Under the pieces are notes generated by a model that was given only the letters and a program-made list of their open reading frames with translations, made no database searches and was not told the DNA's origin. 64,000 nt of DNA from an uncultured Verrucomicrobiota bacterium. GTDB lineage: Bacteria; Verrucomicrobiota; Kiritimatiellia; JAAZAB01. The stretch is from assembly GCA_964617825.1 (NCBI GenBank), contig CAZTWL010000004.1, forward strand, positions 7,546-71,545, written 5' to 3'. This document shows positions 26,760 through 50,114 of this stretch, one piece after another. The position numbers and the translations under genes are program-made. The stretch's first letter is position 1, and the number at the start of each line of letters is the position of its first letter.

Positions 26760-26763
26760 TGCC

Positions 26764-27096
26764 ATGCAAATTATCTACAAAAAGAAAGATACGGCCGTTG
26801 TCATGAGCATCCATGGGCATTTCAATGCCGGCGATGCCCAGGAGTTCGAACGGATATTCAACCAACACCTGGATGCCGGCGAACGCCGTTTTGTCCTGAA
26901 CCTGGCTGAGTTGTCCTTCATCAACAGCGCGGGTTTGTGCAGTATTCTGTCCATTGCCAAGAAAATCAGGGAGTTGGAAGGCAAACTCGTGGTTTGTGCC
27001 CTGCAAGGCGAAGCGCTCAAAGTGTTCGAGATTTCCGGGTTTGCCTCCTTGTTCTCGATCTATCCGACTGAGGCAGCTGCGCTCAAACAGGTATGA
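26764..27096 (+). CDS. STAS-domain protein (second tandem copy)
   Basis: LNLAELSFINSAGLCSIL STAS motif. It starts 5 nt after the previous stop. Confidence 0.75.
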   Translation: MQIIYKKKDTAVVMSIHGHFNAGDAQEFERIFNQHLDAGERRFVLNLAELSFINSAGLCSILSIAKKIRELEGKLVVCALQGEALKVFEISGFASLFSIYPTEAAALKQV

Positions 27097-27111
27097 TTCT
27101 TCCCGACACCC

Positions 27112-28122
27112 ATGAACCAGGCCATCAACGCCCGTCGGCTCCCGCTTATTGCCGGCTTGCTATGCCTGTCCGGGATGTTGAATACCGCTCTGGCCGGGGA
27201 TAAGCCAACCATCTTGATCCCGCAGTGGGAACCCCAAGCCCAATTCGCCGGCTATTATGTTGCGGCCGAAAAAGGCTTTTATGCCCGTAATGGCCTGAAC
27301 GTTACCATTCTCCGCGGCGGCCCGGAGCAGCCCATTTGCCGCTTGCTTAAGGAAGGCCAGGCAGACTTTGCCACAACCTTCCTGACCTCCGCGCTGGAAA
27401 AGCGTTCACTTGAAGGGCTGCCGCTGGTCAATATCGCTCAAATTGTCCAGCGATCCTCGCTCCTGCTGGTGGCTAGGAAATCGTCCGGGATCCGTTCGCC
27501 GGCCGATTTACAGGGCAAAACGGTCAGCATTTGGCCCGATTTTGCGGTTCAACCCAAAGCCCTGTTCCGTAAATTTGGCGTCGACCCGCGAATGTTGCCC
27601 CAGAGCGCATCGATCAACCTTTTCTTGCGCGGGGCTGTCGATGCCGCATCCGCCATGTGGTATAACGAGTATCATATGCTGCTCAACAGCGGAATTGAGG
27701 AACAAGATTTGACGGTTTTCTTTTACGACCAGTTCGAACTTAATTTTCCCGAAGACGGTATCTATTGCCTGGCAGCGACATTGAAACAGGATCCGGACCG
27801 TTGTCGCCGCTTTGTGCAAGCCTCGATCGCCGGTTGGCAGTACGCGTTCCAGCACCCAGAGGAAGCTCTGGATATCGTCATGCAAAAGGTGACCGCTCTC
27901 AATCGCCCAACCAATCGCGTCCACCAGCGCTGGATGCTGAGACGCATGCAGGATATCATACAGCCGCCCGGCGGCCGGCCCATTGGCGAACTGCAGGAAG
28001 CCGATTACCTGCGTGTGGCCCGTGAACTTCAAGCCGCCGGCCAGATCAAAACCATTCCCGACTGGCACGAATTCTATGAAAACTGCGCCATTAACATTTC
28101 GACGAACCAGCCTGGCCGTTAA
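27112..28122 (+). CDS. NMT1/THI5-like periplasmic substrate-binding protein (SsuA/TauA-type)
   Basis: Signal peptide (LIAGLLCLSGMLNTALA) and an NMT1-type fold pattern. Confidence 0.65.
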   Translation: MNQAINARRLPLIAGLLCLSGMLNTALAGDKPTILIPQWEPQAQFAGYYVAAEKGFYARNGLNVTILRGGPEQPICRLLKEGQADFATTFLTSALEKRSLEGLPLVNIAQIVQRSSLLLVARKSSGIRSPADLQGKTVSIWPDFAVQPKALFRKFGVDPRMLPQSASINLFLRGAVDAASAMWYNEYHMLLNSGIEEQDLTVFFYDQFELNFPEDGIYCLAATLKQDPDRCRRFVQASIAGWQYAFQHPEEALDIVMQKVTALNRPTNRVHQRWMLRRMQDIIQPPGGRPIGELQEADYLRVARELQAAGQIKTIPDWHEFYENCAINISTNQPGR

Positions 28123-30022
28123 GCTGGGATTCATGGTGCTGACCGGCACGTCGCTGGTGTTCGCCGCCGCCTTTCTTTACAATCACGTGCTTTCGCGGCG
28201 CGGCATATTGCGCAACGCGGAAACGAATGCCCGCAATCTGACGAGCGCCACGGTCAGCCGGATTGAGGCCGTCTTGAACGGTGTTGAAAAAATACCCGGC
28301 TATACAGCGCTTTGTCTGGAACAGCGCGCATGGACCCGCGATGATCTGATCGGCTTCACCCGCAACTGCCTGCTGGCCAACCCGGACATTTTCGGAGCAG
28401 CCGTGGCCTTCGATCCGTACGCGTTCGATCCCCAATCCAGGTTTTTTGCGCCTTACAGTTGTCGCCAGGGCAAGGAGATCCGGCAAACCTGGCTGGGAAG
28501 CGAGCAATACCTGTATTTTAACTGGGACTGGTATATCCTGCCCAAGGAACTCAAGCGCTCCGTGTGGAGCGAGCCATATTTCGATGAAAGCGGCGGAAAA
28601 GTCATTATGACCACCTATTCCGTGCCGTTTTACCGCGTGCTGAACGGACAGCGGCAATTTCAGGGAATAGTCACGGCCGATATTGCGCTGGACTGGCTGG
28701 TCAAAATTGTTGCCGAGGTGTCGTATTTAAAAACCGGTTATGCCTTTCTCATTTCGCAGAACGGGGTGTTCGTGACGCATCCCAACACGAATCTGATCAT
28801 GCGCCAAAGCGTCTTCGACATGGCCGAAGACGCCAATGACGATCAAATTCGCCAAGTCGGCAAGAAAATGGTGCAAGGCGCCACAGGCTTTGTGCGTCTG
28901 CAAAGCGTTTTCCTCGGCAAACCCTGCTGGGTTTCCTATGCGCCATTGAAAACGACGGGCTGGTCGTTGGGCGTGCTTTTCCCGGAAGACGAATTGTATG
29001 CCGATGCGCAGCGCATGGGGCGCAATATCCTGCTGATCGGCTTGGCCGGATTCGTTGTCCTCTTCCTGATTATCATGCTGATCTCAGCCTCCGTGACGCG
29101 GCCCATCCGCAGTTTGGCGCGCACCACGGCGGAAATCGCTCAGGGCAATCTGGACATCAAACTGCCCCGGATCAAAAGCCACGATGAAGTCGGTGAACTT
29201 TCCTGCGCTTTCGACAACATGCGCGTGGCCCTCAAGGAATATATTGCCGGCCTTACGGAAGCCACGGCGGCCCGTGAACGCCTGGAAAGCGAACTCAAGA
29301 TCGCCCGGACAATTCAAATGAGTTTCCTGCCCAAGCATTTTCCGCCTTTCCCCGAGCAATCCGAATTCGATCTCTATGCCCGCCTGGAACCAGCCAAGGA
29401 AGTTGGCGGCGACCTATACGACTTTTTCCTGCTCGATAATCAGCACCTGTTCTTCAGTATTGGGGATGTCTCCGACAAAGGCGTGCCGGCGGCGCTTTTC
29501 ATGGCCGTAACCAAAACACTGATGAAAGGAATCGCCATGCAAGGCGGCAAGAATGCCGCCGAAATCATGGAGCAAGTCAATCAGGAATTATGCAAGGAAA
29601 ACGATTCATGCATGTTTGTAACCGTTTTCTGTGCGGTGCTTAATTTCAAAACTGGCGAACTGGTATATTCCAATGCCGGTCATAATCCACCCCTGATCAG
29701 GCATGCAAACGGACAGCCGGAGGAAATGCTCCTGCCCAAGGGACTGATCCTCGGCACAATCGAGGCTGCCCGTTACAAAACCGCCAGACTGATCCTTCGC
29801 CCTGGCGATACATTGATTCTCTATACCGATGGCGTTACCGAAGCGATGAATCCGAATAAGGAATTGTATTCGTCCGAGCGGCTGCGGCAAGTGGTTGTCG
29901 ACATCGGCGACCAGAGCCCGCAAACCATCGTGGATGACCTGTTCAAGTCAGTCAACGCCTACTCCTCCGGCGCTCCGCAATCCGACGACATCACCGTTCT
30001 GGCTTTGCATTACAACGGTTGA
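28076..30022 (+). CDS. Sensor phosphatase: Cache-like periplasmic domain + TM + HAMP + PP2C/SpoIIE (RsbU-like)
   Basis: N-terminus MKTAPLTFRRTSLAVKLGFMVLTG (positively charged, then TM), a periplasmic Cache-like region, a second TM, HAMP, then PP2C motifs (GGDLYDF, SIGDVSDKGVPAALFM, DGVTEA). The ATG at 28076 overlaps the upstream gene by 47 nt. Alternative ATG at 28133. Confidence 0.75.
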   Translation: MKTAPLTFRRTSLAVKLGFMVLTGTSLVFAAAFLYNHVLSRRGILRNAETNARNLTSATVSRIEAVLNGVEKIPGYTALCLEQRAWTRDDLIGFTRNCLLANPDIFGAAVAFDPYAFDPQSRFFAPYSCRQGKEIRQTWLGSEQYLYFNWDWYILPKELKRSVWSEPYFDESGGKVIMTTYSVPFYRVLNGQRQFQGIVTADIALDWLVKIVAEVSYLKTGYAFLISQNGVFVTHPNTNLIMRQSVFDMAEDANDDQIRQVGKKMVQGATGFVRLQSVFLGKPCWVSYAPLKTTGWSLGVLFPEDELYADAQRMGRNILLIGLAGFVVLFLIIMLISASVTRPIRSLARTTAEIAQGNLDIKLPRIKSHDEVGELSCAFDNMRVALKEYIAGLTEATAARERLESELKIARTIQMSFLPKHFPPFPEQSEFDLYARLEPAKEVGGDLYDFFLLDNQHLFFSIGDVSDKGVPAALFMAVTKTLMKGIAMQGGKNAAEIMEQVNQELCKENDSCMFVTVFCAVLNFKTGELVYSNAGHNPPLIRHANGQPEEMLLPKGLILGTIEAARYKTARLILRPGDTLILYTDGVTEAMNPNKELYSSERLRQVVVDIGDQSPQTIVDDLFKSVNAYSSGAPQSDDITVLALHYNG

Positions 30023-30355: not shown

Positions 30356-30373
30356 TTGTGAAATTAATCACGA
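30356..30373. promoter_or_regulatory. Rex operator-like site TTGTGAAATTAATCACGA
   Basis: Matches TTGTGAA-N4-TTCACAA at 16 of 18 positions, upstream of rex. Confidence 0.45.
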
Positions 30374-30418
30374 AGAAAACGTTGACAAATAGTCGCGCGT
30401 TGTGTACGTTAACAGCAT

Positions 30419-30436
30419 TCGTGAATTCATTCACAA
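30419..30436. promoter_or_regulatory. Rex operator TCGTGAATTCATTCACAA
   Basis: One mismatch to the 18-bp TTGTGAA-N4-TTCACAA consensus, ~30 bp upstream of the rex start. Confidence 0.6.
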
Positions 30437-30464
30437 AAGAATGCTTGATGTTGGGAGGGTGCGG

Positions 30465-31121
30465 ATGAACGATAAGGTCAAAAATCACGCTGTTCCGGCA
30501 AAGACAATCGAGCGCCTTGTGATGTATCGAATTCTCCTGGATGAGCTGCAGGCCCAGGAAAAAACACATATATTCTCGAATGAAATGGCTCAGATTGTCG
30601 GTAACACTTCGACCCAGGTCCGAAGGGATTTGATGGCCGTCGGCTACACAGGCAATTCGCGGAATGGTTATCAAATCAAGGATTTATTGAAAGCCATCCG
30701 GTCGCTGCTTGAGCCACCGGAAGGAATTACCATGGCTATCGCCGGCATCGGCAACCTTGGACGCGCCATGCTGGGCTATTTTTCCCTGATGCATCCGCGC
30801 TTCCGGATTGTGGGTGCGTTCGATAACGATGTCAACAAGGTGAATCGCACAATCGGCGGCTATCGGATTTCCCACATCCACTCGTTGACCGAAATTTTGA
30901 CGCGCACTCCGGCTCAACTGGGAGTGATAACGGTGCCCGCCGATCAGGCTCAAAAAGTCGCGGACGCCTTCCTGGCATCGAAGGTAACCGGGATCGTTAA
31001 TTTTGCGGCTATTCCGCTTCGCGTTCCGCACCGTGTTTGGTTGGAAGATATGCACATCACATCAACGCTGGAAAAAGCCGCTTATTTTTCCAGAATGAAA
31101 CAGCAAGGAGTAAGCCTGTGA
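30465..31121 (+). CDS. rex: Redox-sensing transcriptional repressor Rex
   Basis: gggaggg RBS. The N-terminal winged helix carries RLVMYRIL. The Rossmann domain carries AIAGIGNLGRA and FDNDVNKV. Confidence 0.85.
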   Translation: MNDKVKNHAVPAKTIERLVMYRILLDELQAQEKTHIFSNEMAQIVGNTSTQVRRDLMAVGYTGNSRNGYQIKDLLKAIRSLLEPPEGITMAIAGIGNLGRAMLGYFSLMHPRFRIVGAFDNDVNKVNRTIGGYRISHIHSLTEILTRTPAQLGVITVPADQAQKVADAFLASKVTGIVNFAAIPLRVPHRVWLEDMHITSTLEKAAYFSRMKQQGVSL

Positions 31122-31132
31122 GCACAGCCACG

Positions 31133-31591
31133 ATGGAGAAAATTAAGTCGAAACACCCGGATGCGGGACGCGATTCCCTGATTCCCATACTGCAGGAACT
31201 GCAGGACGAGCAGGGTTACCTGGCCGAGGAATCGCTGCAGGAAGTCAGCCGTATGTTGAAACTGCCGATGAGCAAGGTTTACGGCGTGGCGAGCTTTTAC
31301 AACCAGTTCCGCTTTCACCCCATCGGCAAATATCACTTCGTGGTTTGCCGGGGTACCGCCTGCCATGTGAAAAAATCGCTGGCGCTTCTGCAAGTGGTTA
31401 AGCAGGCCTTGAAGATCGAACCGGGCCAAACCACCCGCGACGGACTTTTCACGCTCGACCAGGTGGCCTGCATTGGCGCCTGCGGACTGGCGCCAGTCGT
31501 TTGCGTGAATGGCGAATTTCACGCCAAAATGACACCGGAAAAAATTACGGCATTGATTGCAACCTTACGGAGCGCGAATGAAAACAAATAA
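31133..31591 (+). CDS. NuoE-like [2Fe-2S] thioredoxin-fold subunit of NADH-linked [FeFe] hydrogenase (HydC/HndA-type)
   Basis: VCRGTACHV...CIGACGLAPV four-Cys pattern. An in-frame GTG at 31118 (RBS caaggag) overlapping the rex stop is an alternative start. Confidence 0.85.
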   Translation: MEKIKSKHPDAGRDSLIPILQELQDEQGYLAEESLQEVSRMLKLPMSKVYGVASFYNQFRFHPIGKYHFVVCRGTACHVKKSLALLQVVKQALKIEPGQTTRDGLFTLDQVACIGACGLAPVVCVNGEFHAKMTPEKITALIATLRSANENK

Positions 31592-33578
31592 TAGTCTGAC
31601 CGAGCCATGCTGCGCCCGATGCACGCATGCTCCCGAAAAACCCTGCACGAAACGCGTGGAGTGTCTGCTGGATGGTCCTTTCTGCCACGATGACCCGGCC
31701 TGCCGCCAGAAACGCCAGGCCAACGCGAAACAGGCCCGCCGGCAAACGGTTGCCGAACCGGTCTTTATCGTCGGCACCGGCACTTGCGGGCTGGGCGCGG
31801 GCGCAGCCAAAACGATGGAAGCCATTCGCAATTACTGCCGCGCCCACAATTTGGCCCATTCGCTGGTCGAAACCGGCTGTATCGGCCTCTGTTCCGCCGA
31901 GCCGATCATGGATGTCATGCTGCCGGGCAAAGCGCGAATCAGTTTTTCGGATGTTACCGAAGATCGCGTCGCCCCGCTGCTGGATGCCTTGCTGGCCGGC
32001 AAAGCGGATGCCGCCCTGGCGCTGGGTTATTATCCCCAGGAAGGCCACGCCGCCTGGGATGGGATTGCGCCCATAAACGAGCACCCCTTCTTTGCCTCGC
32101 AACACAGGATCGTCCTCCAAAACTGCGGGGTGATCAATCCCTCCAGCCTGGATGAATACGTCGCTTTGCGCGGCTACCGGGCGCTGGCCAAGGCCTTGAA
32201 CACAATGACGCCGGATGAGGTGATTCAGGCGGTGTCGATTAGCGGTCTGCGCGGGCGCGGCGGCGGTGGATTTCCCACAGGCAAAAAATGGTCCCTGGCG
32301 CGCTCGACGCCGTCAGCCCAGAAATATGTGGTTTGTAATGCCGACGAAGGCGACCCGGGGGCCTTCATGGATCGGGCGGTAATCGAAGGCGACCCCCATC
32401 GCGTTCTGGAAGGACTTGCGATTGCGGCCTATGCGGTGGGCGCCTCGAAAGCCTATGTGTATATCCGGGCGGAATACCCCCTGGCGATTCGCCATCTCGA
32501 AGCGGCGATTGCCCAGGCCACGGCCTTGGGACTCATTGGCTATAACATCCTGGATAGCGGATTCAACCTGGCCATCATTATCAAGCAAGGCGCCGGCGCC
32601 TTTGTCTGCGGCGAGGAGACCGCCTTGATCCACAGCATTGAAGGCAAGCGCGGCATGCCGCGCCTGCGGCCGCCCTACCCGGCCACGAGCGGACTGTTCG
32701 GCAAGCCGACGATCATCAACAACGTGGAAACGCTGGCCAATATTCCATCAATTCTGCTGGATTCGCCGGAAAAGTTCGCTGCGATGGGCACGGCTACCAG
32801 CAAAGGCACGAAGGTCTTTGCCCTTTCCGGCAAGGTATCGCGCACCGGTCTGGTCGAGATCGTCATGGGCACGCCGATCAAAGATATCGTCATGAAAATC
32901 GGAGGCGGGATTGCGGATGGCCTGAAGTTCAAGGCCGTGCAGATCGGTGGTCCGTCGGGCGGATGCATCCCCTCCAGCCACATCGATATTGCCGTCGATT
33001 ACGAATCATTGAAACAGGTTGGCGCCATCATGGGCTCCGGCGGGCTGGTTGTAATGGACGAGAAAAACTGCATGGTGGATCTGGCCAAGTTCTTCATGGA
33101 ATTCATCCAGCGCGAAAGCTGCGGCAAGTGCATTCCCTGCCGGGAAGGCACGCGGCGCATGCTGGAAATCCTCAAGAGCATTACGCGTCCACGCGGGGCT
33201 GATTCCGCAACCAATGCCCTCGATCGCTTCAAGGGCGTCCTGCAACTAGAGGAACTGGCCATGGTCATCCGGGACACCAGTCTGTGCGGCCTGGGGCAGA
33301 CGGCGCCCAATCCCGTGCTCTCGACCTTGCGCTGGTTCAGCAACGAATACGAGGCGCACGTCTACGAACGGCGATGTCCGGCGGGCGCCTGCACGGCATT
33401 GCTGAAATATACGATCGATCCGGCCAAATGCATCGGCTGCACGCGTTGCGCAAAATCCTGCCCGGCGGGGGCCATTGCCGGGTCGGCAAAGAAACCGCAT
33501 GCCATTGCCAATGCCCGTTGCATCGGCTGCGGAAGTTGTCTCGATATTTGCACGTTTGGCGCCATCACTCGTAATTGA
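31578..33578 (+). CDS. NuoF-like NADH-binding flavoprotein subunit (HydB/HndC-type)
   Basis: GLRGRGGGGFPTGKKW FMN site and ESCGKCIPCREG N3 cluster motif. An N-terminal thioredoxin-like [2Fe-2S] domain and two C-terminal ferredoxin-type Cys clusters flank the core. A Cys-rich 55-aa N-terminal extension precedes the 2Fe-2S domain. Confidence 0.9.
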   Translation: MKTNNSLTEPCCARCTHAPEKPCTKRVECLLDGPFCHDDPACRQKRQANAKQARRQTVAEPVFIVGTGTCGLGAGAAKTMEAIRNYCRAHNLAHSLVETGCIGLCSAEPIMDVMLPGKARISFSDVTEDRVAPLLDALLAGKADAALALGYYPQEGHAAWDGIAPINEHPFFASQHRIVLQNCGVINPSSLDEYVALRGYRALAKALNTMTPDEVIQAVSISGLRGRGGGGFPTGKKWSLARSTPSAQKYVVCNADEGDPGAFMDRAVIEGDPHRVLEGLAIAAYAVGASKAYVYIRAEYPLAIRHLEAAIAQATALGLIGYNILDSGFNLAIIIKQGAGAFVCGEETALIHSIEGKRGMPRLRPPYPATSGLFGKPTIINNVETLANIPSILLDSPEKFAAMGTATSKGTKVFALSGKVSRTGLVEIVMGTPIKDIVMKIGGGIADGLKFKAVQIGGPSGGCIPSSHIDIAVDYESLKQVGAIMGSGGLVVMDEKNCMVDLAKFFMEFIQRESCGKCIPCREGTRRMLEILKSITRPRGADSATNALDRFKGVLQLEELAMVIRDTSLCGLGQTAPNPVLSTLRWFSNEYEAHVYERRCPAGACTALLKYTIDPAKCIGCTRCAKSCPAGAIAGSAKKPHAIANARCIGCGSCLDICTFGAITRN

Positions 33579-33594
33579 GCAAGGAGGAATCGTT

Positions 33595-35317
33595 TGTGAT
33601 CACAATTGAAGTCAACGGAAAACCCATGGAAGTAAAGGAAGGCGAAACACTCCTGGCAGCCATGCGGTCTCAGGGAATTCTAATCCCGGCCCTCTGTCAC
33701 ATGGAAGGTTTCTCACCCACCGGCGCCTGCCGCCTGTGCGTGGTGGAAGTGGAAGGCCAGCGGGGCCTGTCGCCCAGCTGCGCCACCGTGGTCAGCAAGG
33801 GAATGAAAGTTAAGACCCATTCGCCCCGCGTGCTGAAAGCCCGTAAAACCGTGGTGGAGTTGTTGCTGGCCGGGCACCCCGATAACTGCCTGTATTGTTC
33901 GCGCAACAAGCACTGCGAACTTCAGTCGCTGGCCGAACAATTGGGCATTAGTGACCGCCGTTTTGAGGGAGGCCGCAACCGCTTCCCGCTCGACATGTCG
34001 AGCCCGTCCCTGGTGCGCGATCCGGATAAATGCATCCTGTGCGGTCGCTGTGTCCGCGTTTGTGAGGAAGTCCAGGGGGTCGGCGCCATCGATTTCATCG
34101 GGCGCGGTTGCACCACCGAGGTGGGCACGGCCTTCCGGCGCGGATTGAACACCTCCACTTGCGTCAACTGCGGGCAGTGTATTGTGGCCTGTCCGACAGG
34201 GGCTCTGCGCGAACAGAGTTCCATCGCCGTGGTGGAGAATGCCCTGGCGGATCCCGCCAAATGCGTCGTGATCCAGCATGCTCCGGCCGTGTCGGTAACG
34301 CTTGGCGAAGAAATCGGATTGAAGGCCGGAACGGATTATGCCGGGATCCTCAATGCGGCCTTGCGGCGCCTGGGTTTTGCCAAGGTTTTTGATACTTCCT
34401 TCACCGCCGACCTGACGATCATGGAGGAGGCGTCCGAACTGGTGCAGCGGATCACGCAGGGCGGGCGCTTGCCGCTCATGACCAGCTGTTCGCCGGCTTG
34501 GGTTAAATTCGTGGAGCATTTTTATCCGCAGCTGATCCCTAACCTTTCGACCTGCAAGAGTCCGCAGCAGATGATGGGTGCGGTGATCAAGAGTTATTAT
34601 GCCGCCAAGGCCGGGATCGATCCGCACAATATTTTCAGCGTGAGCCTGATGCCCTGCACGGCCAAAAAATTCGAGGCTACGCGGCCGGAAATGGGCCGGG
34701 ATGGCATGTCCGATATCGACGCCGTTCTGACGACGCGCGAGCTCGTTTCCCTGCTGCACAAGCACGGTATTGACCCTCAGACCATGACTCCGGAAGAGGC
34801 GGACGATCCCATGGCGCGCCGCAGCGGCGCCGGCAAAATCTTTGGCGCCTCGGGCGGCGTCACCGAGGCGGCCTTGCGCACGGCCTATCACCTGATTACC
34901 GGGCATGAAAGCCCGTCGCTGACCTTCAAGGAAGTTCGCGACAGCCGTGGGACAAAGGAAGCCCGCATCCAGATCGCCAATCTGAATGTCGGCGTGGCCG
35001 TTGTCTCCGGACTGCAGAATGCACGACGCCTGATGGACCAGCTTGTTGCCGGCCGTACGGACCTGCATTTCATCGAAGTGATGAGTTGCCCGGGCGGCTG
35101 CGTCGCCGGTGGCGGACAGCCGCGCGGTGTGGACCACAGCGCCGTTCGCGAGCGCGCGGCCGCGCTCTATTCGGTCGACGAACATGAAAAACTGCGCACG
35201 TCGCACGAAAATACATCCATCCAGGAACTTTATAAAGAATTCCTGGGAAGTCCCTTGGGACACAAGTCCCACGAACTGCTGCACACGCATTACATGAAAA
35301 GGGATTCGGCGCAATAA
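33595..35317 (+). CDS. hydA: [FeFe] hydrogenase catalytic subunit HydA (NuoG-like N-terminus)
   Basis: GTG start after aaggagga. N-terminal 2Fe-2S and 4Fe-4S cluster motifs precede the H-cluster motifs MPCTAKKFE (L2) and EVMSCPGGCVAGGGQP (L3). The L1 motif reads TSCSPAW rather than canonical TSCCPxW. Confidence 0.9.
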
Positions 35318-37347
35318 TGAATGCCGGCTGCACCCAGCCTAATACCGCCGTGCCGATCGTGGAAGAGCCGCTGGTCCGTTCGGTGAGCGAACGATGCCGC
35401 GTCTGTTACACTTGCGTTCGGGAATGTCCGGCCAAGGCCATCAGGATTATCCATGGCCAGGCCGCGGTGATTCCGGAACGCTGCATCGGCTGCGGCAATT
35501 GCGTCCGCGTGTGCAGCCAGGGCGCCAAAGAAGTGCGCAACAGCGTGCCCAAGGTGCGTGAAATCCTGCAGGGCCAGGCGCCGGTGGCGGCGATCCTGGC
35601 CCCCAGCTTTCCCGCTGCGTTTTCGGAATGCGATTACGGCGCAGTGGTCGGCATGCTGCGCCGGCTGGGATTTGCCAGGGTTTGCGAGACGGCCTTTGGG
35701 GCCGACATGGTGGCTCAGGAATATCGGAGGCTGCTCGAAGCGCATCCGGATCGGAACTACATTGCCTCGACCTGCCCGGCCGTCGTATCTTTCATCGAAT
35801 ATTACCACCCTACCCTCGTGACACGGTTGATTCCGGTGGTGTCGCCCATGGTGGCCGCGGCGCGAATGTTGAAAAAAATCCAGCCTGAAATCCGCATAGT
35901 ATTTATCGGTCCGTGCATTGCCAAAAAAGCCGAAGCGATCGACGAGGATGCTGCCAGCGCGGTCGATGCCGTGCTGACTTTCACGGAAATAAGGACCATG
36001 CTGCAGGAACAAAGCATCAATCCGCAGGGCACGACGCCCTCCGAATTCGATCCGCCCTATGCCGGCAAAGGGCGGCTTTTTGCCTTGACGCGCGGACTGT
36101 TGGAAACTGCCGGAATCCGCGAGGAACTGATGAACAACAATATTGTCGTCAGCGACGGACGGGAAAGTTTTGTCGAGGCGATCAACGAATACGAACTCGG
36201 TTCGCTGAATGCCCGCTTGCTGGAAGTCTTGTGCTGCCAGGGTTGTATCATGGGAGCCGGCATGTCCAAGCCACTGCTGCCCTTGTTCAAGCGCCGCGCG
36301 CTGGTCAGCGCCTATGCGAAGAAACGCACGGCCGACCCGACCACCCCGGTCGCAACAACGGGACGCGAGCCGCATAATGTCGATCTGCACCGCGAGTTTC
36401 GCCGCAAGGACCGTAATATGCCGACGCCAATGGATGACGATATCAATGCGATCCTGGCCAAGATGGGCAAGTTCTGCGCGGATGATGAATTGAATTGCGG
36501 TGCTTGCGGCTACGCAACCTGCCGGCTGCATGCCGTGGCCATCCACGATGGCTTGGCCGAGGAGGAGATGTGCCTGCCTTATACGATCGACAAACTGAAA
36601 GAAACGATCCAGAAGCTGGCCGATTCGAGCGAGGAAGTGGCTACGATCCAGAACGCGCTGGCCCAGTCGGAAAAGCTGGCCAGCATGGGCCAGCTGGCTG
36701 CCGGCGTGGCGCATGAAGTCAACAACCCGTTGGGCATTGTGCTGATGTATGCGCACCTCCTTCTCGAAAAACACGGCCGGGCCGACAAAGGGCTTAAGGA
36801 AGACTTGAGCGTAATTGTGGCGCAGGCTGACCGCTGCAAACGAATCATCTCCGGCCTGCTGGATTTTGCCCGCCAAAACAAGGTGTTGCGCCAGCGCACG
36901 AACATCCTGCACCTGGTGGAAAACAATTTGCGGGCCATCAATCTGCCGCCGGAAATCGAAACACGGATCGTCAATGGCCTGGAGGATCCCGTGGCCGAGG
37001 TGGATGCCGACCAGATTTCCCAGGTATTGGTCAATCTCTTTGCCAATGCGCGGGCCGCCATGCCGCGCTCCGGGCGTTTGACGGTGGAGTTGAGCGGTGA
37101 CACTGATACCGTAACTCTGCGCGTGGCGGATAACGGCGTGGGCATCCCGCCTGAGAACCTGCCGAGGATTTTCGATCCTTTTTTCACGACGAAACAAATC
37201 GGCATCGGGACTGGGCTGGGACTGGCCGTGGTATACGGCATCATCAAAATGCACCGCGGAAAAATCACGGTCAAATCCAATCACACCCCCGGCAAGGACG
37301 ATACCGGCACGGTCTTCACCATTAACTTGCCGCGCAGGGGAATTTAA
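35317..37347 (+). CDS. Sensory [FeFe]-hydrogenase-like domain fused to a histidine kinase (HisKA + HATPase_c)
   Basis: Two N-terminal ferredoxin CxxCxxCxxxCP motifs, then an H-cluster-like domain with ASTCPAV (L1 lacking one Cys), GPCIAKKAE (L2) and EVLCCQGCIMGAG (L3). A CADDELNCGACGYATC...(16)...C cysteine cluster follows, then the HAHEVNNPL H-box and an ATPase domain. The ATG overlaps the hydA stop (TAATG). Confidence 0.8.
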   Translation: MNAGCTQPNTAVPIVEEPLVRSVSERCRVCYTCVRECPAKAIRIIHGQAAVIPERCIGCGNCVRVCSQGAKEVRNSVPKVREILQGQAPVAAILAPSFPAAFSECDYGAVVGMLRRLGFARVCETAFGADMVAQEYRRLLEAHPDRNYIASTCPAVVSFIEYYHPTLVTRLIPVVSPMVAAARMLKKIQPEIRIVFIGPCIAKKAEAIDEDAASAVDAVLTFTEIRTMLQEQSINPQGTTPSEFDPPYAGKGRLFALTRGLLETAGIREELMNNNIVVSDGRESFVEAINEYELGSLNARLLEVLCCQGCIMGAGMSKPLLPLFKRRALVSAYAKKRTADPTTPVATTGREPHNVDLHREFRRKDRNMPTPMDDDINAILAKMGKFCADDELNCGACGYATCRLHAVAIHDGLAEEEMCLPYTIDKLKETIQKLADSSEEVATIQNALAQSEKLASMGQLAAGVAHEVNNPLGIVLMYAHLLLEKHGRADKGLKEDLSVIVAQADRCKRIISGLLDFARQNKVLRQRTNILHLVENNLRAINLPPEIETRIVNGLEDPVAEVDADQISQVLVNLFANARAAMPRSGRLTVELSGDTDTVTLRVADNGVGIPPENLPRIFDPFFTTKQIGIGTGLGLAVVYGIIKMHRGKITVKSNHTPGKDDTGTVFTINLPRRGI

Positions 37348-37374
37348 ACAAAACGCACTCGAAAGGATACAAAG

Positions 37375-37764
37375 ATGGGCACAGCAAAAAAAGCGCTGAT
37401 CGTGGACGATGATACCGATTTTGTTTTCCAGCAGAAAAAGGCACTGGAGTCGCTGGGTTTCACCGTTGAATCGGCGGAAGGCCGCGAAGAAGCGATGGAA
37501 AAACTTAAAGTCTACCACCCGGACCTGGCGATGGTAGATCTGATGATGGAAGAAAAGGATGGCGGATTTGTGCTCGCGCATTATCTCAAGCAGCTGTATC
37601 CGCAAACACCGGTCATCCTCGTATCGGCGGTCACAGCTGAAACCGGCCTGCAATTCGACTTGGATTCGCAGGGAGCGCAGCGCTGGATCAAGGCGGATGC
37701 GATCATGACCAAGCCCTTGCGCTTGGAACAATTGCAACGGGAAATCGAACGCTTAATGGCATGA
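37375..37764 (+). CDS. Single-domain response regulator (REC)
   Basis: ALIVDDD ... MVDLMM ... receiver pattern. 129 aa. Confidence 0.8.
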   Translation: MGTAKKALIVDDDTDFVFQQKKALESLGFTVESAEGREEAMEKLKVYHPDLAMVDLMMEEKDGGFVLAHYLKQLYPQTPVILVSAVTAETGLQFDLDSQGAQRWIKADAIMTKPLRLEQLQREIERLMA

Positions 37765-38885
37765 AGACAACGGACCTGACTTTTTGGATCGTCGATGATG
37801 AGCCCTCCATGTGCCAGAGCGTTCTACGCGCACTGGAGGATTTCAGCGTGGATGACCAGGATCTGGGTGAGACCGTGCGTTATCAGGGCCTGGCGCTGGA
37901 TTCCGGCGAAGCCTTCATGCAGCGGGTGGAGAGCGGGGAAGTCCCGCACCTGCTGCTGCTGGACAGCAAGCTGCCGGGCAAAGATGGCATTGAAGTCCTG
38001 CAATGGATGGGCAAGCGCCATCAACCGATTGTGACGATAATGATCACCGCCTACGCCACACTGGAAAATGCGGTCAAGGCCACCAAACTGGGCGCATTTG
38101 ATTTCCTGGCAAAACCATTTACCCCGGTGGAATTGCGCCACGCCGTCACCCGGGCCACCCGCGAAATCCTTCACCTTCGCCGTGCCCGGCAACTGGAGCA
38201 GGAAAAGCGCCAGGTGCGTTTTGAATTTCTTTCCATCTTGGCCCATGAATTGAAGTCCCCCCTCGCGGCACTTGAAGGCTATGTGGATTTGGAGCGCCAG
38301 GCACCCTCCAAGGAATACCTTGACCGCATGCAGGCGCGGATTTCCGGCATGCGCAAGCTGATCGGAGACTTACTGGACTTGACGGCAATCGAATCCGGCA
38401 AGCGGATACGCAATCTGCAACCGGAAGACTTGCGCGCCGTGGCGCTCCAGGAAATTGCCGCCCAGACGTCCGCCGCAGCGGAACGCCGGATTTCGATGGA
38501 TGTGACCGGAACCGGCCAGTCCTCGGTGGAAGCCGATCGCCGCGAATTGGAAATGTTGCTGAGGAACTTGATTTCCAATGCGATCAAATACAACCGTCCG
38601 GGCGGCAGCGTGACCGTCGACATTACCGCAACCGAAGGTGAGATTGTTCTGAGCGTGCGCGATACCGGCATCGGCATTGCTCCGGCTGATCAGGAAAAAT
38701 TATTCCTTGAATTTTCGCGCGTCAGAAACCAGAAAACAAGGGGAATTGAAGGCAGCGGATTGGGACTTTCCATTGTACGTCAGATTGCCGGACTATATGG
38801 AGCCAAGATCCGTTTGATAAGCGAAGAAGACAAGGGCAGCACTTTTATGGTAATATTTCACAGACCAAATAGCCCCGCTGCTTGA
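37761..38885 (+). CDS. Hybrid response regulator-histidine kinase (REC + HisKA + HATPase_c)
   Basis: ATGA overlap with the upstream gene. REC (FWIVDDEP...LLLDSKLPGKDG), the LSILAHELKSPL H-box, and G-boxes. Confidence 0.85.
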   Translation: MKTTDLTFWIVDDEPSMCQSVLRALEDFSVDDQDLGETVRYQGLALDSGEAFMQRVESGEVPHLLLLDSKLPGKDGIEVLQWMGKRHQPIVTIMITAYATLENAVKATKLGAFDFLAKPFTPVELRHAVTRATREILHLRRARQLEQEKRQVRFEFLSILAHELKSPLAALEGYVDLERQAPSKEYLDRMQARISGMRKLIGDLLDLTAIESGKRIRNLQPEDLRAVALQEIAAQTSAAAERRISMDVTGTGQSSVEADRRELEMLLRNLISNAIKYNRPGGSVTVDITATEGEIVLSVRDTGIGIAPADQEKLFLEFSRVRNQKTRGIEGSGLGLSIVRQIAGLYGAKIRLISEEDKGSTFMVIFHRPNSPAA

Positions 38886-38932
38886 GACATTCCGGCGACG
38901 GTGTCGGACACAAAACACAAAAGGAGGGTCAA

Positions 38933-39313
38933 ATGGACACAAAAACAATCCTAGTCGTGGATGATGACGCTGACATTCGGGCTCAGATGGAAAAGATCCT
39001 CCAACCCCATTATCGGGTGATAACGGCGGCGTCCGGTAAAGAATGCCTGCAGAATGTAGCCAAGGCGCTGCCGGACTGCATCGTCATGGACGTCATGATG
39101 GATGACTTGACTGACGGCCTGGAAACCGCCAAGAAACTCAAGGATGCCTACAAGACCAGGAAAATTCCGATCATCCTGTTGACCAGCGTTAACGAATCGT
39201 ATGACTATCGCTCACAGGTGGATGCCGGCTATTTCCCGCACAATTGCTGGATGGATAAGCCGGTCAAGGCGGACCGCCTTCTCAAGGAAATCGCGGCCCT
39301 GGTCGGGGCCTGA
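38933..39313 (+). CDS. Single-domain response regulator (REC)
   Basis: aaaggaggg RBS. ILVVDDDADIR ... IVMDVMMDD receiver pattern. Confidence 0.8.
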   Translation: MDTKTILVVDDDADIRAQMEKILQPHYRVITAASGKECLQNVAKALPDCIVMDVMMDDLTDGLETAKKLKDAYKTRKIPIILLTSVNESYDYRSQVDAGYFPHNCWMDKPVKADRLLKEIAALVGA

Positions 39314-39540
39314 AACCAAGTCACGCGAACGCATGTCCGCCAAGCTGCAGTCATAAGGCCGCCAAAAGCGGCGCATAAAGTTATTCGGGGTTGCGCCTGC
39401 TATAAAAATTAAATCTCGCTTTTTCCATTTTTGCAGCCACGACGCGCTTGGGAGCGGCAATGGATTTTCCTTGTTTATCGCGCCGCATTCATTTATTGAT
39501 AGCGCCAAATAAGTGTCCGTGAATAGATGCGGAGCGGTTG

Positions 39541-40896
39541 ATGGAACGCTATAAAATTCTCATTGTCGATGACGAAGCTGACATGGTGTCCGCCATGACC
39601 AAGCTGCTGGCCTCCTCGGTGCAAGCCGACATCATTTCCACCTGCTCATCCAGCGAAGCCATCAATATTCTATTCAAGGAATCCATTGCCTTGATATTGT
39701 GCGACATGCAAATGCCCGAGTTCGACGGCAACGTCGTGCTCTCCCTCGCCCGCAAAAGCAATCCCAATATTGTCTCCATTCTTTGCACGGCCCGCGCCGA
39801 CCGCGAAAGCGTTATTGAAGCCATCAATAAGGGTGGCATCTGGAAGTATCTGGCCAAGCCTTTCAAGGCCGCCGACTTCATCCAGATGATCCAGGACGGA
39901 CTCCAATATTACGACGACGTCATGCGCCGCCAGAATCAGCTAAAGACACTGGCGCATACTGCTCCCATGCCGAAGCTGGCTCCGAAACAAGCGGAGACGC
40001 CAAAGGCGCGTCCGCTCCATCCGGTACGCATTAAAAGGATGCACCCGGTTGTCGCGCATCGTCCTGCCATTCCCAAACTCGCCGGTCCTCTGGCCAACGC
40101 CAAGCACGTTGACCAGCGCTATCGGATTGTGCGCCTGATTCAGGAAGGTGGCAGCGGTATCGTCTATGAAGCCCATGACACCCTGCTGGACATGCCCGTG
40201 GCAATCAAAGTGCTCTTGCCCCAATTCACTCAGGATGCGGCCTCGATCGCCGCGTTGCGCAACGAGGCGCGGATTGCCATGCAGCTTTCGCACAAGCATA
40301 TCGTGCGCTTGCACAACCTTCAGGAACATGACGGCGGATTTTATATGGTCATGGAATACATCGACGGCTGCACGTTTCGTGACATTATCAAGGACCAGGG
40401 CAAACTGCCTCTGGCCACGGCCATGCAGGTGGCCGGCATATGCGCCGATGCCATCGGTTATGCCCATCGCCGCAATGTGCTCCATCGCGATATCAAGCCT
40501 GACAACATGATGCTGACCCAGGATGGCGTGTTGAAGGTCATTGATTTCGGCTTGGCCTGCCTTTCGCATCCGGTGCGCAAAACCGAGGTGATCAGCGGGA
40601 CGCCGATGTATATCAGCCCGGAAGAATTTCAAGGCAAGTCCCTGGATCAGCGCTCGGATATTTTCTCTCTGGCCGTCACCCTTCACGAATTGATTACCGG
40701 CAATATGCCGACAGCCGATGGCGCGCGCGCCAATAATCTGGCGCCCTACTGCCCGGTAATCTCAGCCGAGATCCCCACCCCGCTCCGCCCTGTCTTCGCG
40801 AAGGCCCTGGCCCTGGACCCCGACAAGCGCTGGAGCACCGTCGACGAGTTTGTCGGGGAACTGACCAAGGCCTATGCCGGCATCAAATCCGCATGA
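39541..40896 (+). CDS. Response-regulator receiver fused to Hanks-type Ser/Thr protein kinase
   Basis: N-terminal REC (ILIVDDEADM...LCDMQMPEFDG). The kinase domain carries GGSGIVYEA, AIK, HRDIKPDNMML, DFGLA and SPEEF. Confidence 0.85.
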   Translation: MERYKILIVDDEADMVSAMTKLLASSVQADIISTCSSSEAINILFKESIALILCDMQMPEFDGNVVLSLARKSNPNIVSILCTARADRESVIEAINKGGIWKYLAKPFKAADFIQMIQDGLQYYDDVMRRQNQLKTLAHTAPMPKLAPKQAETPKARPLHPVRIKRMHPVVAHRPAIPKLAGPLANAKHVDQRYRIVRLIQEGGSGIVYEAHDTLLDMPVAIKVLLPQFTQDAASIAALRNEARIAMQLSHKHIVRLHNLQEHDGGFYMVMEYIDGCTFRDIIKDQGKLPLATAMQVAGICADAIGYAHRRNVLHRDIKPDNMMLTQDGVLKVIDFGLACLSHPVRKTEVISGTPMYISPEEFQGKSLDQRSDIFSLAVTLHELITGNMPTADGARANNLAPYCPVISAEIPTPLRPVFAKALALDPDKRWSTVDEFVGELTKAYAGIKSA

Positions 40897-40928
40897 CTCG
40901 GCGGAAGCGCATGCCGGCCCTGACAAGA

Positions 40929-41005
40929 TGGTACCCCGGGCGCGACTTGAACGCGCGACCTGCTGATTAGGAATCAGCTGCTCTGTCCAACTGAGCTACC
41001 GGAGT
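40929..41005 (-). tRNA. tRNA-Arg (anticodon CCT)
   Basis: Hand-folded cloverleaf: acceptor ACTCCGG/CCGGGGT, D-arm GCTC..GAGC, anticodon loop TTCCTAA, T-arm GCGCGTTCAAGTCGCGC, encoded CCA. Confidence 0.85.
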
Positions 41006-41179: not shown

Positions 41180-41812
41180 TTACTTTGCGGTTTTATCGGC
41201 CTTCGCCTTGGGCTCCGCGGCGAAGGGTACAATGGCGATGAATTCCTCCACTGTCACAAAGCCATCGTTGTTGGCATCCAAATTCTTGAATTCTTTGTCG
41301 ACACCAGCCTTCATTTCATCGGAAGTAACCTTGCCGTCGCTGTTTGCGTCCAGGGCAGCGTAAACGCTCATGCGATAGGCAATGACCTCAACCGCGCTAA
41401 CTTCGTTGTCGCCGTTGGCGTCCAGTTTGTCGCAAGCGGCAGTTTGACCAGCCGCGGCATCGGCGCCGGCGAAGAAAACGACGTATTCTTCCATCGTTAT
41501 GCTGCCATCTTTGTTAAGATCAATATTCACTATTCGTTGGGCGGCAAATTCGCCGGCATCGAGTTTCCCGTCGTTATTGACATCCAGTTCCTTGAACCAG
41601 TCTTTGCGCCGGGCCTGCTGTTCTTCGGCCGACAGTTTGCCGTCTTTATTGATATCCATCTTCTGGAAAATCGACTTAACTATCTGGACGGCCTTTTTCT
41701 CAGGCGCCACCGCTTTTGAATCCTTGGCCACAGTCTGTTCCTCAGCGCAAACGACCGATGACATAGCAACGGCGACGACTCCGGCAACCGCCCATTTCAG
41801 CATCTGACTCAT
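41180..41812 (-). CDS. Secreted EF-hand calcium-binding protein (six EF-hand loops)
   Basis: aggagg RBS and a signal peptide. Repeated DxNxDGxxxxxE loops (DINKDGKLSAEE, DVNNDGKLDAGE, DLNKDGSITMEE, DANGDNEVSAVE, DANSDGKVTSDE, DANNDGFVTVEE). Confidence 0.8.
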   Translation of the reverse strand: MSQMLKWAVAGVVAVAMSSVVCAEEQTVAKDSKAVAPEKKAVQIVKSIFQKMDINKDGKLSAEEQQARRKDWFKELDVNNDGKLDAGEFAAQRIVNIDLNKDGSITMEEYVVFFAGADAAAGQTAACDKLDANGDNEVSAVEVIAYRMSVYAALDANSDGKVTSDEMKAGVDKEFKNLDANNDGFVTVEEFIAIVPFAAEPKAKADKTAK

Positions 41813-42116
41813 TGAAGAACCTCCTGACCAGCTGTTTGCGGCCGCATGGGTGTGGATTAATCTGAGCTTAGCAGCCCGCAATCAACACCGGATAATCATG
41901 GCAGCCAATGTGCTGAACGATACCAGTACATCGTCAAAAGTGTCAAATTTATTTCCGCACCGAATTATGACTCCAGCAGTAACTCCTCTCGACGGGTTTC
42001 ATCGATAACATTGCCGAATTCGGCCGGCACGCGGTCGGAGCGTGCAAATAGAGCCCAAACCGCCGTGTTGGACAATTTTCATTGGACACACCTGCCAGGA
42101 TGGGTACAATAATTTC

Positions 42117-47606: not shown

Positions 47607-47864
47607 GTACCCCACCTGGAAAAGAAATCTTCCAGCCAACAAACTTGTGCATTCTGTCGGTTTGGCTCCGAAATGCAAGCATAAATTGCTGGCTATCGCC
47701 CTACCGTTATAAAAAGCTTGATGGCATTGGCAAAGATGATACTAGCTATGTTCGACAATCCAATTGATGCTCCGGCGATTGGCGGCAGGATATGTTGTTT
47801 GGCAATAAGGATTGCTTCCGTTCCAAATGGGCTTATTTGCAAAATCATTAAAAGGAGCTCTTCG

Positions 47865-50114
47865 ATGGAAAAGAGACAACCGCTCAACGAACAACCGTTC
47901 TACAACCACCAGCTGGACCGCTATTTTGAGCCACCCGAACCCGGAATTCGTGACTGGCGGAACAAGGTTTATCTGCCGCCCAATCTTGAAGTTTGCATCG
48001 AAGGGCCAAGCGCAAACGGAATCGAGCATGCCGGCCTCTTACTTAAACGCTACTTGAAAAAATTCAACCGTTGGCAGGCGCCGAGCGGCGTGGCGCGGAT
48101 CAAATACATCCGCATAGCCCATGGCGGCCCCGATCCGCTGTTCGGGCGCGTTCCGAACGAGCAATTTACCTTCGAGGTGGATGACGAGAAAGTTCAGATC
48201 CAGGCAAAGACTGTTCGCGGCGCCATTGCGGGCATCGTGAACCTGATTCACCGTCTTGAGCTCGAACGGTCTCCCGGTCTCACAAAGGGAAATAGCTCGC
48301 TTCGCCCCCGCTTTGCGCGCCGGATTCTTCCCGGTGTTTTTGGGAACTCTTTTGTCGACTTCAATGCGCGGAACGAACCGGATGAGCGCGCTTTCGATCT
48401 GGAGCTTCTCAGCGGCGCCAACACCGTAATGACCACCCTGGATCTGGCATTATTGGATGACGGTCGCGTCCTGCGCGAGCTTGGGAATAAAGCCAACATT
48501 GAGCGCCGTGAATACCTGGCAAGGATGGCCGATCGCATCGGCAAACATGGATTAGACCTTGCGGGCAACTGCTATACGCCGCGGCTTGCTGCAAACCATG
48601 CGCTTTGGACAAAACACCCGGAAATGCGCGGATCGTATTGCAAGAAATCGTTTTATATCATGTGTTGCAGCCATCCGGGATCAATAGCGGCGCTGGGAAA
48701 ATCCTGGGCCAACCTGGCTGAGGACATCCCCCAGTTGGCTACCATGATTTGGATTGTCGGCGGCGAAGGATTTTACCACTGCCATATGCATCCCAAAACC
48801 AGCATCATTTGTTCCCGCTGCATGCGAAAGGATCCCGAGCAGACGATAGCCCGCTTTATAAACCGGTTGGCTCTTTTTGTGCATCAGGCACGCGACCGCA
48901 TGGAAATTATTGCCTGGCCTTACAGCGGATATGGTTGGACCAGGGATGCCGAATGCAAGGATTTGATCAACGGCTTGGATCCCGAGCAAGTCGCCTTCAT
49001 CACCTGTCCCGAAAAAGACTCTTTGTTCAATCGCGGGGAACACGACATCAATGCCTGGGACTACAGTATTTCCTGCATAGGTCCCGGGCCGCGCTTTCAG
49101 ACCCAGGAACGCCTCTGCCGCAAACGCAGTATTCCTTTTTACATCAAGACCGAGACTTCCTTAGGTTTCGAATTCCAGCACGTCCCGTTCATTCCCGTTA
49201 TGCAAAGCTGGCAGAAACGGTGGAACCTTGTAAGGAAAGCCCGTCCTAAAGGAATTATTATGGCATGGGGAAAAGAATCGGGAGCGGCAACCATGGACTT
49301 GGGGTATTGGGCCGGCTTGACTTCGGACAAGGAATTTAAATCCATTCTGAAATGCGTGGCGCAAGCACGCTTTGGTGACCGTTGTGTCGGGCTAATCCTT
49401 CAGGGCTGGAGGTGTTTTTCGCGTTCCATGCAGGCCTACCCGCTCGTGGCCCCCTTCTACAGTGCCGGTCCGGCTTTTCTCGGTCCGGCGCACCCGATTT
49501 CCCTTGATCCAGGTTCGCATTTGGATCCACTGTATGAAATACGTTATTCCTGGGCCACGGAAGATTATCCCGCCGGAACACCGGTGGAAGAAACGCCGAA
49601 ACATTACTGTTCGCTAACGAATCTGGAAATGTTTATCGCGCACATGTTGCCGCACAATCTGGACGATGCCAAGGATGCCATCCTCCTGCGGGCAATGAGA
49701 AAGGCGGAACGATATTGGCGCGCCGGGATTCGCTGCCTCGATCGGGCGCGTCCCTTGATTACCGGGGAAAGAGAACGAAAGGATTTTAACAGGGAGGAGG
49801 CGGTCGCGCGTTGGATCTGGATGACGCTCGTAACCAGCGTCAACTTCATCGAAGTGACTCGATTGCGCGATCCCCTCACGGGTTGGCGCAAGCTCTGTGA
49901 AGCCTATCGCCCAACCCTGATGCGTCGCTTGAAGACAAAATGCAACCGGATTCTTTCATCGGAAGAAAAAAACACGTTGGCCGCCTTGTCCCTTATTAGG
50001 CGCGTGCCGGAACTTGACCTGGGGCGCAGGCGCGGCGCGTTCATTGCGCCAATCGAAGAAATGCTGATCCACAAATTGAGATTAATCAGAAAGGATCTCG
50101 ATGCCTTGAATTAG
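47865..50114 (+). CDS. Large hypothetical protein (749 aa, Cys/Trp/His-rich, no assignable domain)
   Basis: aaaggag RBS 8 nt before the ATG, and a long clean ORF. No motif could be assigned by eye. Confidence 0.5.
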   Translation: MEKRQPLNEQPFYNHQLDRYFEPPEPGIRDWRNKVYLPPNLEVCIEGPSANGIEHAGLLLKRYLKKFNRWQAPSGVARIKYIRIAHGGPDPLFGRVPNEQFTFEVDDEKVQIQAKTVRGAIAGIVNLIHRLELERSPGLTKGNSSLRPRFARRILPGVFGNSFVDFNARNEPDERAFDLELLSGANTVMTTLDLALLDDGRVLRELGNKANIERREYLARMADRIGKHGLDLAGNCYTPRLAANHALWTKHPEMRGSYCKKSFYIMCCSHPGSIAALGKSWANLAEDIPQLATMIWIVGGEGFYHCHMHPKTSIICSRCMRKDPEQTIARFINRLALFVHQARDRMEIIAWPYSGYGWTRDAECKDLINGLDPEQVAFITCPEKDSLFNRGEHDINAWDYSISCIGPGPRFQTQERLCRKRSIPFYIKTETSLGFEFQHVPFIPVMQSWQKRWNLVRKARPKGIIMAWGKESGAATMDLGYWAGLTSDKEFKSILKCVAQARFGDRCVGLILQGWRCFSRSMQAYPLVAPFYSAGPAFLGPAHPISLDPGSHLDPLYEIRYSWATEDYPAGTPVEETPKHYCSLTNLEMFIAHMLPHNLDDAKDAILLRAMRKAERYWRAGIRCLDRARPLITGERERKDFNREEAVARWIWMTLVTSVNFIEVTRLRDPLTGWRKLCEAYRPTLMRRLKTKCNRILSSEEKNTLAALSLIRRVPELDLGRRRGAFIAPIEEMLIHKLRLIRKDLDALN

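Follow-up and report, generated by a model that had tools for sequence, protein, structure and literature searches.

A 64,000-nucleotide (nt) stretch of genomic DNA from an uncultured Verrucomicrobiota bacterium (contig CAZTWL010000004.1; the whole stretch is hereafter called the window) contains a hyd operon that encodes the regulator Rex, the subunits of an [FeFe] hydrogenase (HydCBA), and a putative sensory [FeFe] hydrogenase fused to a histidine kinase (HydS/HK). Four signaling genes follow on the same strand (Table 1), namely, a single-domain receiver (REC1), a REC-HisKA-HATPase hybrid kinase (REC-HK), a second single-domain receiver (REC3), and a receiver fused to a Hanks-type serine/threonine kinase (REC-STK). 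The original prediction, which was made from the sequence, described these genes as a His-Asp relay that is fed by the H2 sensor, has no DNA-binding output, and ends in the Ser/Thr kinase. Open reading frames (ORFs) and Pfam matches agree with this gene content at positions 37375-40896, the domain matches of the hyd, relay, and kinase genes are all far above the Pfam cut-offs, and neither a helix-turn-helix nor any other DNA-binding domain was found by Pfam in the four proteins. The coordinates also agree that REC1 starts 27 nt past the HydS/HK stop codon. Base 35317 belongs both to the stop of hydA and to the start of hydS, REC1 and REC-HK overlap by 4 nt, and the likely start of REC3 is the ATG at 38933, as indicated by a GAAGGA ribosome-binding site and agreement with the length of its orthologues. 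A non-coding gap then separates REC3 from REC-STK; this gap, which contrasts with the overlapping or tight spacing of the first three genes, was not mentioned in the original prediction.

Table 1. Genes and other features of the hyd region and its surroundings in the window.
Feature	Position	Strand	Basis or remark
Rex	30402-31121	+	Pfam Put_DNA-bind_N and CoA_binding; likely start ATG 30466
HydC, NuoE-like	31037-31591	+	Pfam/ORF
HydB, NuoF-like	31557-33578	+	Pfam/ORF
HydA	33575-35317	+	Pfam/ORF
HydS/HK sensor	35317-37347	+	2x[4Fe-4S], Fe_hyd_lg_C, Cx2Cx4Cx16C, HisKA, HATPase
REC1, single-domain receiver	37375-37764	+	Response_reg E=6e-16
REC-HK, REC-HisKA-HATPase hybrid, receiver N-terminal	37761-38885	+	E=3e-19, 2e-13, 4e-28
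REC3, single-domain receiver	38933-39313	+	Response_reg E=1e-19; ORF opens at 38882
Non-coding gap, ~225 nt	39314-39540	+	Between REC3 stop and REC-STK
REC-STK, REC-Ser/Thr kinase	39541-40896 (ORF from 39538)	+	Response_reg E=6e-20, Pkinase E=6e-45
EF-hand protein	41180-41881	opposite	Next gene past REC-STK
STAS anti-sigma antagonist 1	26430-26759	+	Pfam
STAS anti-sigma antagonist 2	26764-27096	+	Pfam
NMT1-like binding protein	27112-28122	+	Pfam
dCache-HAMP-PP2C phosphatase	28076-30022	+	SpoIIE E=5e-54

Four hyd contexts in all, including that of the window, were compared gene by gene. In L084/L085 (HydS-HK 68% identical in amino acids), the order is Rex-HydC-HydB-HydA-HydS/HK-REC-REC/HK-REC, followed by a convergent gene for an FAD oxidoreductase. 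In L086 (58%), the genes from Rex to REC/HK have the same order and are followed by hydG and hydF, and the third REC is absent. In L175 (81%), the contig contains HydA-HydS/HK-REC-REC/HK-REC. Two of these three other contexts, L175 and L084, contain the third REC, and similarity to the two closest relatives ends at, or just inside, its end. More specifically, positions 34997-39313 of the window match L175 at 77% nucleotide identity, and the REC3 stop codon is precisely where the match ends; the L175 contig runs for another 127 nt, and this tail resembles nothing in the window. In both contexts that show what follows the relay (L084 and L086), REC-STK is absent downstream of HydS-HK. Because the composition recurs in other contexts and the similarity to L175 stops at 39313, the conserved unit runs from the Rex-box promoter region to REC3 and ends at that position. 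This unit has the components expected of phosphotransfer. REC1 orthologues occupy the same position in L175, L084, and L086 with D11-13, D55, and K113 invariant, and REC1 and REC3, each with its acceptor site intact, are conserved as distinct paralogues. Eight REC-HK orthologues from several phyla all retain D68, H162, and the N, G1, and G2 boxes, and their mean column identity is 62%. With H-boxes, N/G1/G2 boxes, and acceptor Asp residues present and conserved, the donor kinases and acceptor receivers look competent. For none of the five signaling proteins did a specific NCBIfam model score above its cut-off.

A broader comparison relied on homologue lists for HydS-HK, REC-HK, and REC-STK (the best 120 of each), in which equal longest-contig values served as a proxy for shared contigs. 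The HydS-HK and REC-HK lists have 18 contigs in common (17 besides that of the window); among the 16 closest HydS-HK homologues, 11 are on contigs that also carry a REC-HK homologue. For REC-STK, the sole contig in common with either of the other lists is that of the window (156,092 bp). The HydS-HK/REC-HK pair was found in Planctomycetota/Phycisphaerae, Margulisbacteria, Chitinivibrionales, and others, and no REC-STK member from these groups was among the matches listed.

At the head of the hyd operon (30356-30437, + strand), two Rex-box-like palindromes, TTGTGAAATTAATCACGAA and TTCGTGAATTCATTCACAA, were read by eye. They bracket a promoter-like TTGACA-N17-TACGTT, and their positions are immediately upstream of and inside the annotated rex start; ATG 30466 is probably the true start codon. 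The palindromes were called by their resemblance to the Rex operator consensus. These putative operators suggest that Rex may autoregulate the whole hyd operon. In the gap at 39314-39540, neither an intrinsic terminator (fold z=0.24) nor a site meeting the sigma-70 scan criteria was found, a result that is neutral with respect to read-through. A promoter-like TTGAC-N19-TATAAT match could be seen by eye upstream of the REC-STK orthologues in L091 and L094, and weakly in the window, but it fails the criteria of the scanner and was not used. Sigma-54 sites are not enriched in the window (44 vs. 40 expected), and none precedes the hyd or REC-STK genes.

The REC-STK protein consists of a receiver (residues 1-125), a Pro/Lys/Ala-rich linker of ~65 amino acids, and a kinase domain (residues 190-445) that scores 154 bits against a Pkinase cut-off of 31.7. 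The motifs on which the original prediction based its view of an intact kinase, HRDIKPDN and DFG, are present, and key residues (K223, E242, H315, D317, N322, and D335/G337) are invariant or nearly so among 34 family members, which is consistent with catalytic competence. In the same alignment, D10/D11, D55, and K106 of the receiver are conserved and T83 is present, and the linker is variable across the family. Over its full length, the kinase domain aligns with the catalytic domains of Stk1, StkP, and PknB, which are its best matches in PDB (E about 1e-41). Like these Hanks-type kinases, REC-STK has all catalytic motifs and an activation-loop Thr/Ser, but unlike them it lacks a transmembrane segment and PASTA or other extracellular sensor domains. 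About 100 proteins with the same architecture were listed, and the named sources are only metagenome-assembled genomes of Kiritimatiellota, Verrucomicrobiota, and Lentisphaerota. A metagenome scan recovered five true relatives, and a profile scan of genome contigs with the REC-STK alignment returned 80 kinases, all of them unrelated proteins with generic kinase motifs. To our knowledge, response regulators with a protein-kinase output have been listed in census papers as uncharacterized proteins, and a literature search on REC-Pkinase regulators found nothing usable.

The family members occupy six unrelated gene contexts outside the window. The nearest relative (L087, 81% amino acid identity) lies directly after two STAS genes and a PP2C remnant. 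The others lie between DUF6790 and smpB (L081-83, 76%), next to a gene for a large unknown protein and recombinase/McrBC genes (L088-90/L093, 75%), between genes for a fucosidase and an HD protein (L091/92, 76%), in a DUF1846 and LacI region (L171-173, 42-44%), and next to genes for phospholipase A1 (PLA1) and OmpA-like proteins (L174, 45%). Neither a hydrogenase nor a histidine kinase was found within 8-10 kb of REC-STK in these six contexts. The orthologues are ~89% identical in nucleotide sequence over the gene, and their 10-kb flanks are unrelated beyond a few tens of bases (L081, L088, and L091); of the gap in the window, the last ~20-70 nt alone are common to orthologues located elsewhere. 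REC-STK apparently moves between loci as one unit. Several of the orthologues are found beside integrase/Fic, recombinase/McrBC, or toxin-antitoxin genes. From domain content and neighborhoods, we infer that REC-STK is a soluble orphan response regulator with an active Hanks kinase as output, and that its cognate histidine kinase is encoded elsewhere. Judged by these gene contexts, its position beside the hyd operon is a lineage-specific juxtaposition with no conserved functional link.

We consider it probable that the region comprises two separate things: a conserved operon from rex to REC3, which would encode an H2-sensing histidine kinase cascade, and an abutting orphan REC-STK. The part of the earlier relay model that concerns the sensor stands, as the sensor is a histidine kinase and both REC and REC-HK are conserved operon partners, and so does the lack of a DNA-binding output in the conserved cluster; the part that makes REC-STK the endpoint is not supported. 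That HydS-HK or REC-HK phosphorylates the REC-STK receiver here, such that H2 leads to Ser/Thr phosphorylation, is consistent with the location of REC-STK on the same strand immediately downstream of the relay, the absence of a detected terminator in the gap, the lack of an effector domain in the conserved relay, and the apparent catalytic integrity of both the kinase and the receiver of REC-STK. However, this adjacency was seen in the window only. REC-STK is missing from L084 and L086, the short L175 tail is unrelated to the window, REC-STK lies in six unrelated contexts elsewhere, no contig besides the window's own is shared between the lists, and the HydS-HK/REC-HK pair occurs in phyla with no REC-STK member among the matches listed. 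An ending of the relay in REC-STK is thus distinctly unlikely. In this organism, conversion of H2 and redox information from His-Asp to Ser/Thr phosphorylation is possible, but the Ser/Thr-kinase endpoint, which was the source of the original prediction's appeal, is without comparative support.

The context in L087 raises another explanation, in which REC-STK is the STAS kinase of the upstream module of two STAS genes, a binding protein, and a PP2C phosphatase, with the kinase opposing PP2C and the hyd operon inserted between them. REC-STK in L087 is preceded, up to its ribosome-binding site, by the two STAS genes and an in-frame PP2C fragment of 88 bp (L087 2460-2600). The L087 segments correspond to positions 26315-27106, 29439-29526, and 39520-40946 of the window; L087 lacks the 12.4 kb that hold the binding protein, PP2C, and the entire hyd operon. 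Both junctions have 3-4 nt of microhomology, which is typical of real deletions and argues against a chimeric assembly. This arrangement looks like a natural double deletion in L087 or an insertion of the hyd operon in the lineage of the window. In composition, the hyd region (32001-38000) has a GC content of 0.57-0.61, compared with about 0.54, and a positive GC skew, compared with a negative skew in the rest of the window. These differences may come from Fe-S protein composition or from a separate origin.

The two STAS proteins score 72.9 and 67.1 bits against an ant_ant_sig cut-off of 53.45 and retain the phosphorylatable Ser (ISSAGL and INSAGL). Together with the sensor-linked PP2C phosphatase, they are encoded 9.5-13 kb upstream on the same strand. 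This set resembles RsbU/RsbV/RsbW, but it differs from RsbUVW in that a scan of 44 window ORFs found neither an RsbW-type kinase (HATPase_c_2 without HisKA) nor a sigma factor. In Mycobacterium, STAS proteins are phosphorylated by Hanks kinases (PknD-Rv0516c). The location of REC-STK in L087, the phosphorylatable Ser residues, the missing RsbW-type kinase, the Mycobacterium precedent, and the higher GC and opposite skew of the hyd segment count in favor of REC-STK being a STAS kinase. On the other side, neither STAS nor PP2C genes lie near REC-STK in its five other contexts, and L087 is one short contig that fits both insertion and deletion. We regard this explanation as unlikely, and any connection of the STAS/PP2C module with the hyd relay or with REC-STK is conjectural. 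Very improbable, in our assessment, is a combination of these ideas, in which a mobile orphan REC-STK was captured by an H2 cascade that has no output of its own, is phosphorylated by HydS-HK/REC-HK, possibly acts on the STAS proteins, and is reset by PP2C; if true, three signaling chemistries would be joined in one 14.5-kb locus.

Several points weigh against the separation of the conserved operon from REC-STK and against the cascade proposed for it. The gene-by-gene comparison covered only four hyd contexts, contig matching is a proxy, and the lists hold the best 120 matches. With no recognizable terminator or promoter in the gap, read-through co-transcription into REC-STK is possible. The conserved relay is without an obvious effector, and REC-STK would neatly fill this role in this genome. 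Pairwise identities among the receivers are 21-36% and give no hint of kinase-receiver specificity. Furthermore, the kinase core of REC-HK is of the HisKA type, whereas that of ExsG, its counterpart in the experimentally studied system described below, is of the HWE type, such that the analogy is architectural only.

The assignment of the sensor is based on motifs and gene neighborhood. The H-domain of HydS/HK matches Fe_hyd_lg_C with E=3e-51, and all four Cys ligands of the H-cluster are kept, as the Cys residues of STCP, GPC, and CCQGC align with the ligands of the neighboring HydA. The surrounding motifs are altered: P1 reads A-S-T-C-P (STCP vs. TSCCP, with Thr where the first Cys is expected), P2 reads GPC instead of MPC (M353 to G), and P3 reads EVLCCQGC where ExMxCxxGC is expected (M497 to L). 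The catalytic-type residues, namely, the proton-relay Cys, M353, and M497, are lost as in Group C sensors; the roles of these residues are partly as given in PMC8163306. The N-terminus has Fer4 family matches at residues 22-70 (2x[4Fe-4S]), a small four-Cys "FeS" domain (PF04060) is located at residues 392-421, and the C-terminal Cx2Cx4Cx16C motif reads CGACGYATC-x16-C in the translation. Homologues with the same fused architecture number 7873 at E<1e-20, and those that carry names belong to Planctomycetota/Phycisphaerae and Margulisbacteria. By these features, the sensor is of the Group C sensory [FeFe] hydrogenase (HydS) type, and it is predicted to sense H2.

For the conserved operon, the following mechanism may be proposed. 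Information on H2 or redox state would reach the fused kinase core from the HydS-like domain, by way of its H-cluster and C-terminal [4Fe-4S] cluster. From this core, phosphoryl groups would be transferred to REC1 and the receiver at the N-terminus of REC-HK. Phosphorylation of this receiver would switch the autokinase activity of REC-HK, which would in turn control REC3. Such a cascade would be two-tier, branched, and possibly sign-inverting, as has been shown in vitro for BphP1-AgR-ExsG-ExsF. Its outputs would be the single-domain receivers REC1 and REC3, which may act through protein-protein contact on candidate targets such as HydABC, Rex, or PP2C, and Rex would add a transcriptional, NADH-dependent layer. 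The orphan REC-STK would be activated separately, by a histidine kinase that is encoded at another locus and phosphorylates D55. The core may instead be a linear relay of the Spo0 type, from HydS-HK to REC1, to the histidine of the dimerization and histidine phosphotransfer (DHp) domain of REC-HK, and to REC3. The order HK-REC-(DHp protein)-REC mirrors KinA-Spo0F-Spo0B-Spo0A, and the distinctness of the conserved paralogues REC1 and REC3 fits this scheme. However, REC-HK keeps its N, G1, and G2 ATP-binding boxes and a receiver of its own, whereas dedicated phosphotransferases, such as Spo0B and ChpT, have lost the ATP-binding boxes; REC3 appears dispensable, given its absence from L086; and the experimentally studied system of the same composition, BphP1-AgR-ExsG-ExsF, is branched (PMC3899027). 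Because REC-HK retains a complete ATP-binding domain and L086 lacks REC3, the linear scheme is less likely than the branched cascade, and on the whole it seems improbable.

Signal transmission by sensory [FeFe] hydrogenases is not known to have been demonstrated experimentally, and the literature consulted stops at linkage to a "PAS domain" or a histidine kinase. The contexts compared here indicate that kinase-fused sensors travel with fixed partners, namely, a receiver and a receiver-kinase hybrid, often along with another receiver. Rex is the sole transcription factor in this conserved set, which provides a concrete phosphotransfer scheme and hints at an output at the post-translational level. 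The Ser/Thr kinase is a neighbor rather than a conserved member of the system, and the attractive earlier reading is corrected in this respect.

The hydrogenase next to the sensor is a trimeric A3-type [FeFe] enzyme, its gene order is the same in L084 and L086, and among solved structures it is closest to HydA1/HydA2 of bifurcating and HDCR enzymes. In HydA, P1 (34481-34501) reads TSCSPxW compared with the canonical TSCCPxW, and the HydA proteins of L084, L085, and L086 have the same motif. Among the 150 best HydA cluster representatives, 20 have TSCSP and two more have SSCSP, and these are mostly the closest ones. The residue before Pro, which is Ser here, presumably corresponds to the [4Fe-4S]H ligand Cys300 of CpI. 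No paper on TSCSP in a hydrogenase context was found.

Elsewhere in the window, a near-consensus sigma-54 site, TGGCACGATTGATGCT (8013-8028), comes after a gene for an NtrC-type REC-AAA-HTH regulator (6288-7679) and lies immediately 5' of a gene for a 326-amino-acid Hsp20-domain protein (region 8013-9072). This pair is probably a stress regulon unrelated to the hyd locus. Positions 14526-24561 contain genes for MoxR AAA, DUF58, an unknown protein, and VWA, followed by two very large proteins, one of which (18762-21698) has a long Gln/Lys/Glu-rich tail; this arrangement resembles a Bat aerotolerance operon. Four proteins of 419-798 amino acids (47718-50114, 50662-52536, 59223-60482, and 60488-61972) have no Pfam match at E<=1e-5.

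Among known systems, the sensor belongs to a kind that is catalogued but biochemically uncharacterized. HydDB includes "histidine kinase-linked" (C1) and "phosphatase-linked" (C3) putative sensory [FeFe] hydrogenases (PMC5037454), a 2024 survey described group C proteins ("BfuT" subunit) with a histidine kinase domain that adjoin A3 hydrogenases (PMC11406978), and the Cx2Cx4Cx16C motif has been reported for putative sensory [FeFe] enzymes (PMC8163306). The window sensor resembles Group C HydS in its altered active-site motifs, two N-terminal [4Fe-4S] motifs, C-terminal Cx2Cx4Cx16C motif, fused signaling domain, and location directly 3' of a trimeric A3 hydrogenase. Unlike the biochemically studied TmHydS, which has a PAS domain, and TamHydS, which does not, it is fused straight to a kinase core. 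The downstream REC/REC-HK/REC set is undescribed in the Group C literature consulted (PMC5037454, PMC8163306, and PMC11406978). Its closest parallel in composition is the bacteriophytochrome pathway BphP1-AgR-ExsG-ExsF of Rhizobium NT-26 and Agrobacterium, in which the sensor histidine kinase phosphorylates AgR and the receiver of ExsG, and ExsG phosphorylates ExsF (PMC3899027). As ExsG is inhibited by phosphorylation of its receiver, that pathway is experimentally both branched and inverting (PMC3899027). The two systems have in common a sensor histidine kinase, a single REC, a hybrid histidine kinase with an N-terminal REC, and a second single REC. They differ in input (H2 rather than light) and in the hybrid, as ExsG is hexameric with an HWE-type core, whereas REC-HK is of the HisKA type (PF00512 E=2e-13) with no HWE_HK match at E<=0.01. 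We claim no sequence orthology between them, and phosphotransfer in the hyd system is deduced from the genes; by analogy, the window hybrid may work like ExsG, though it is not a member of that family.

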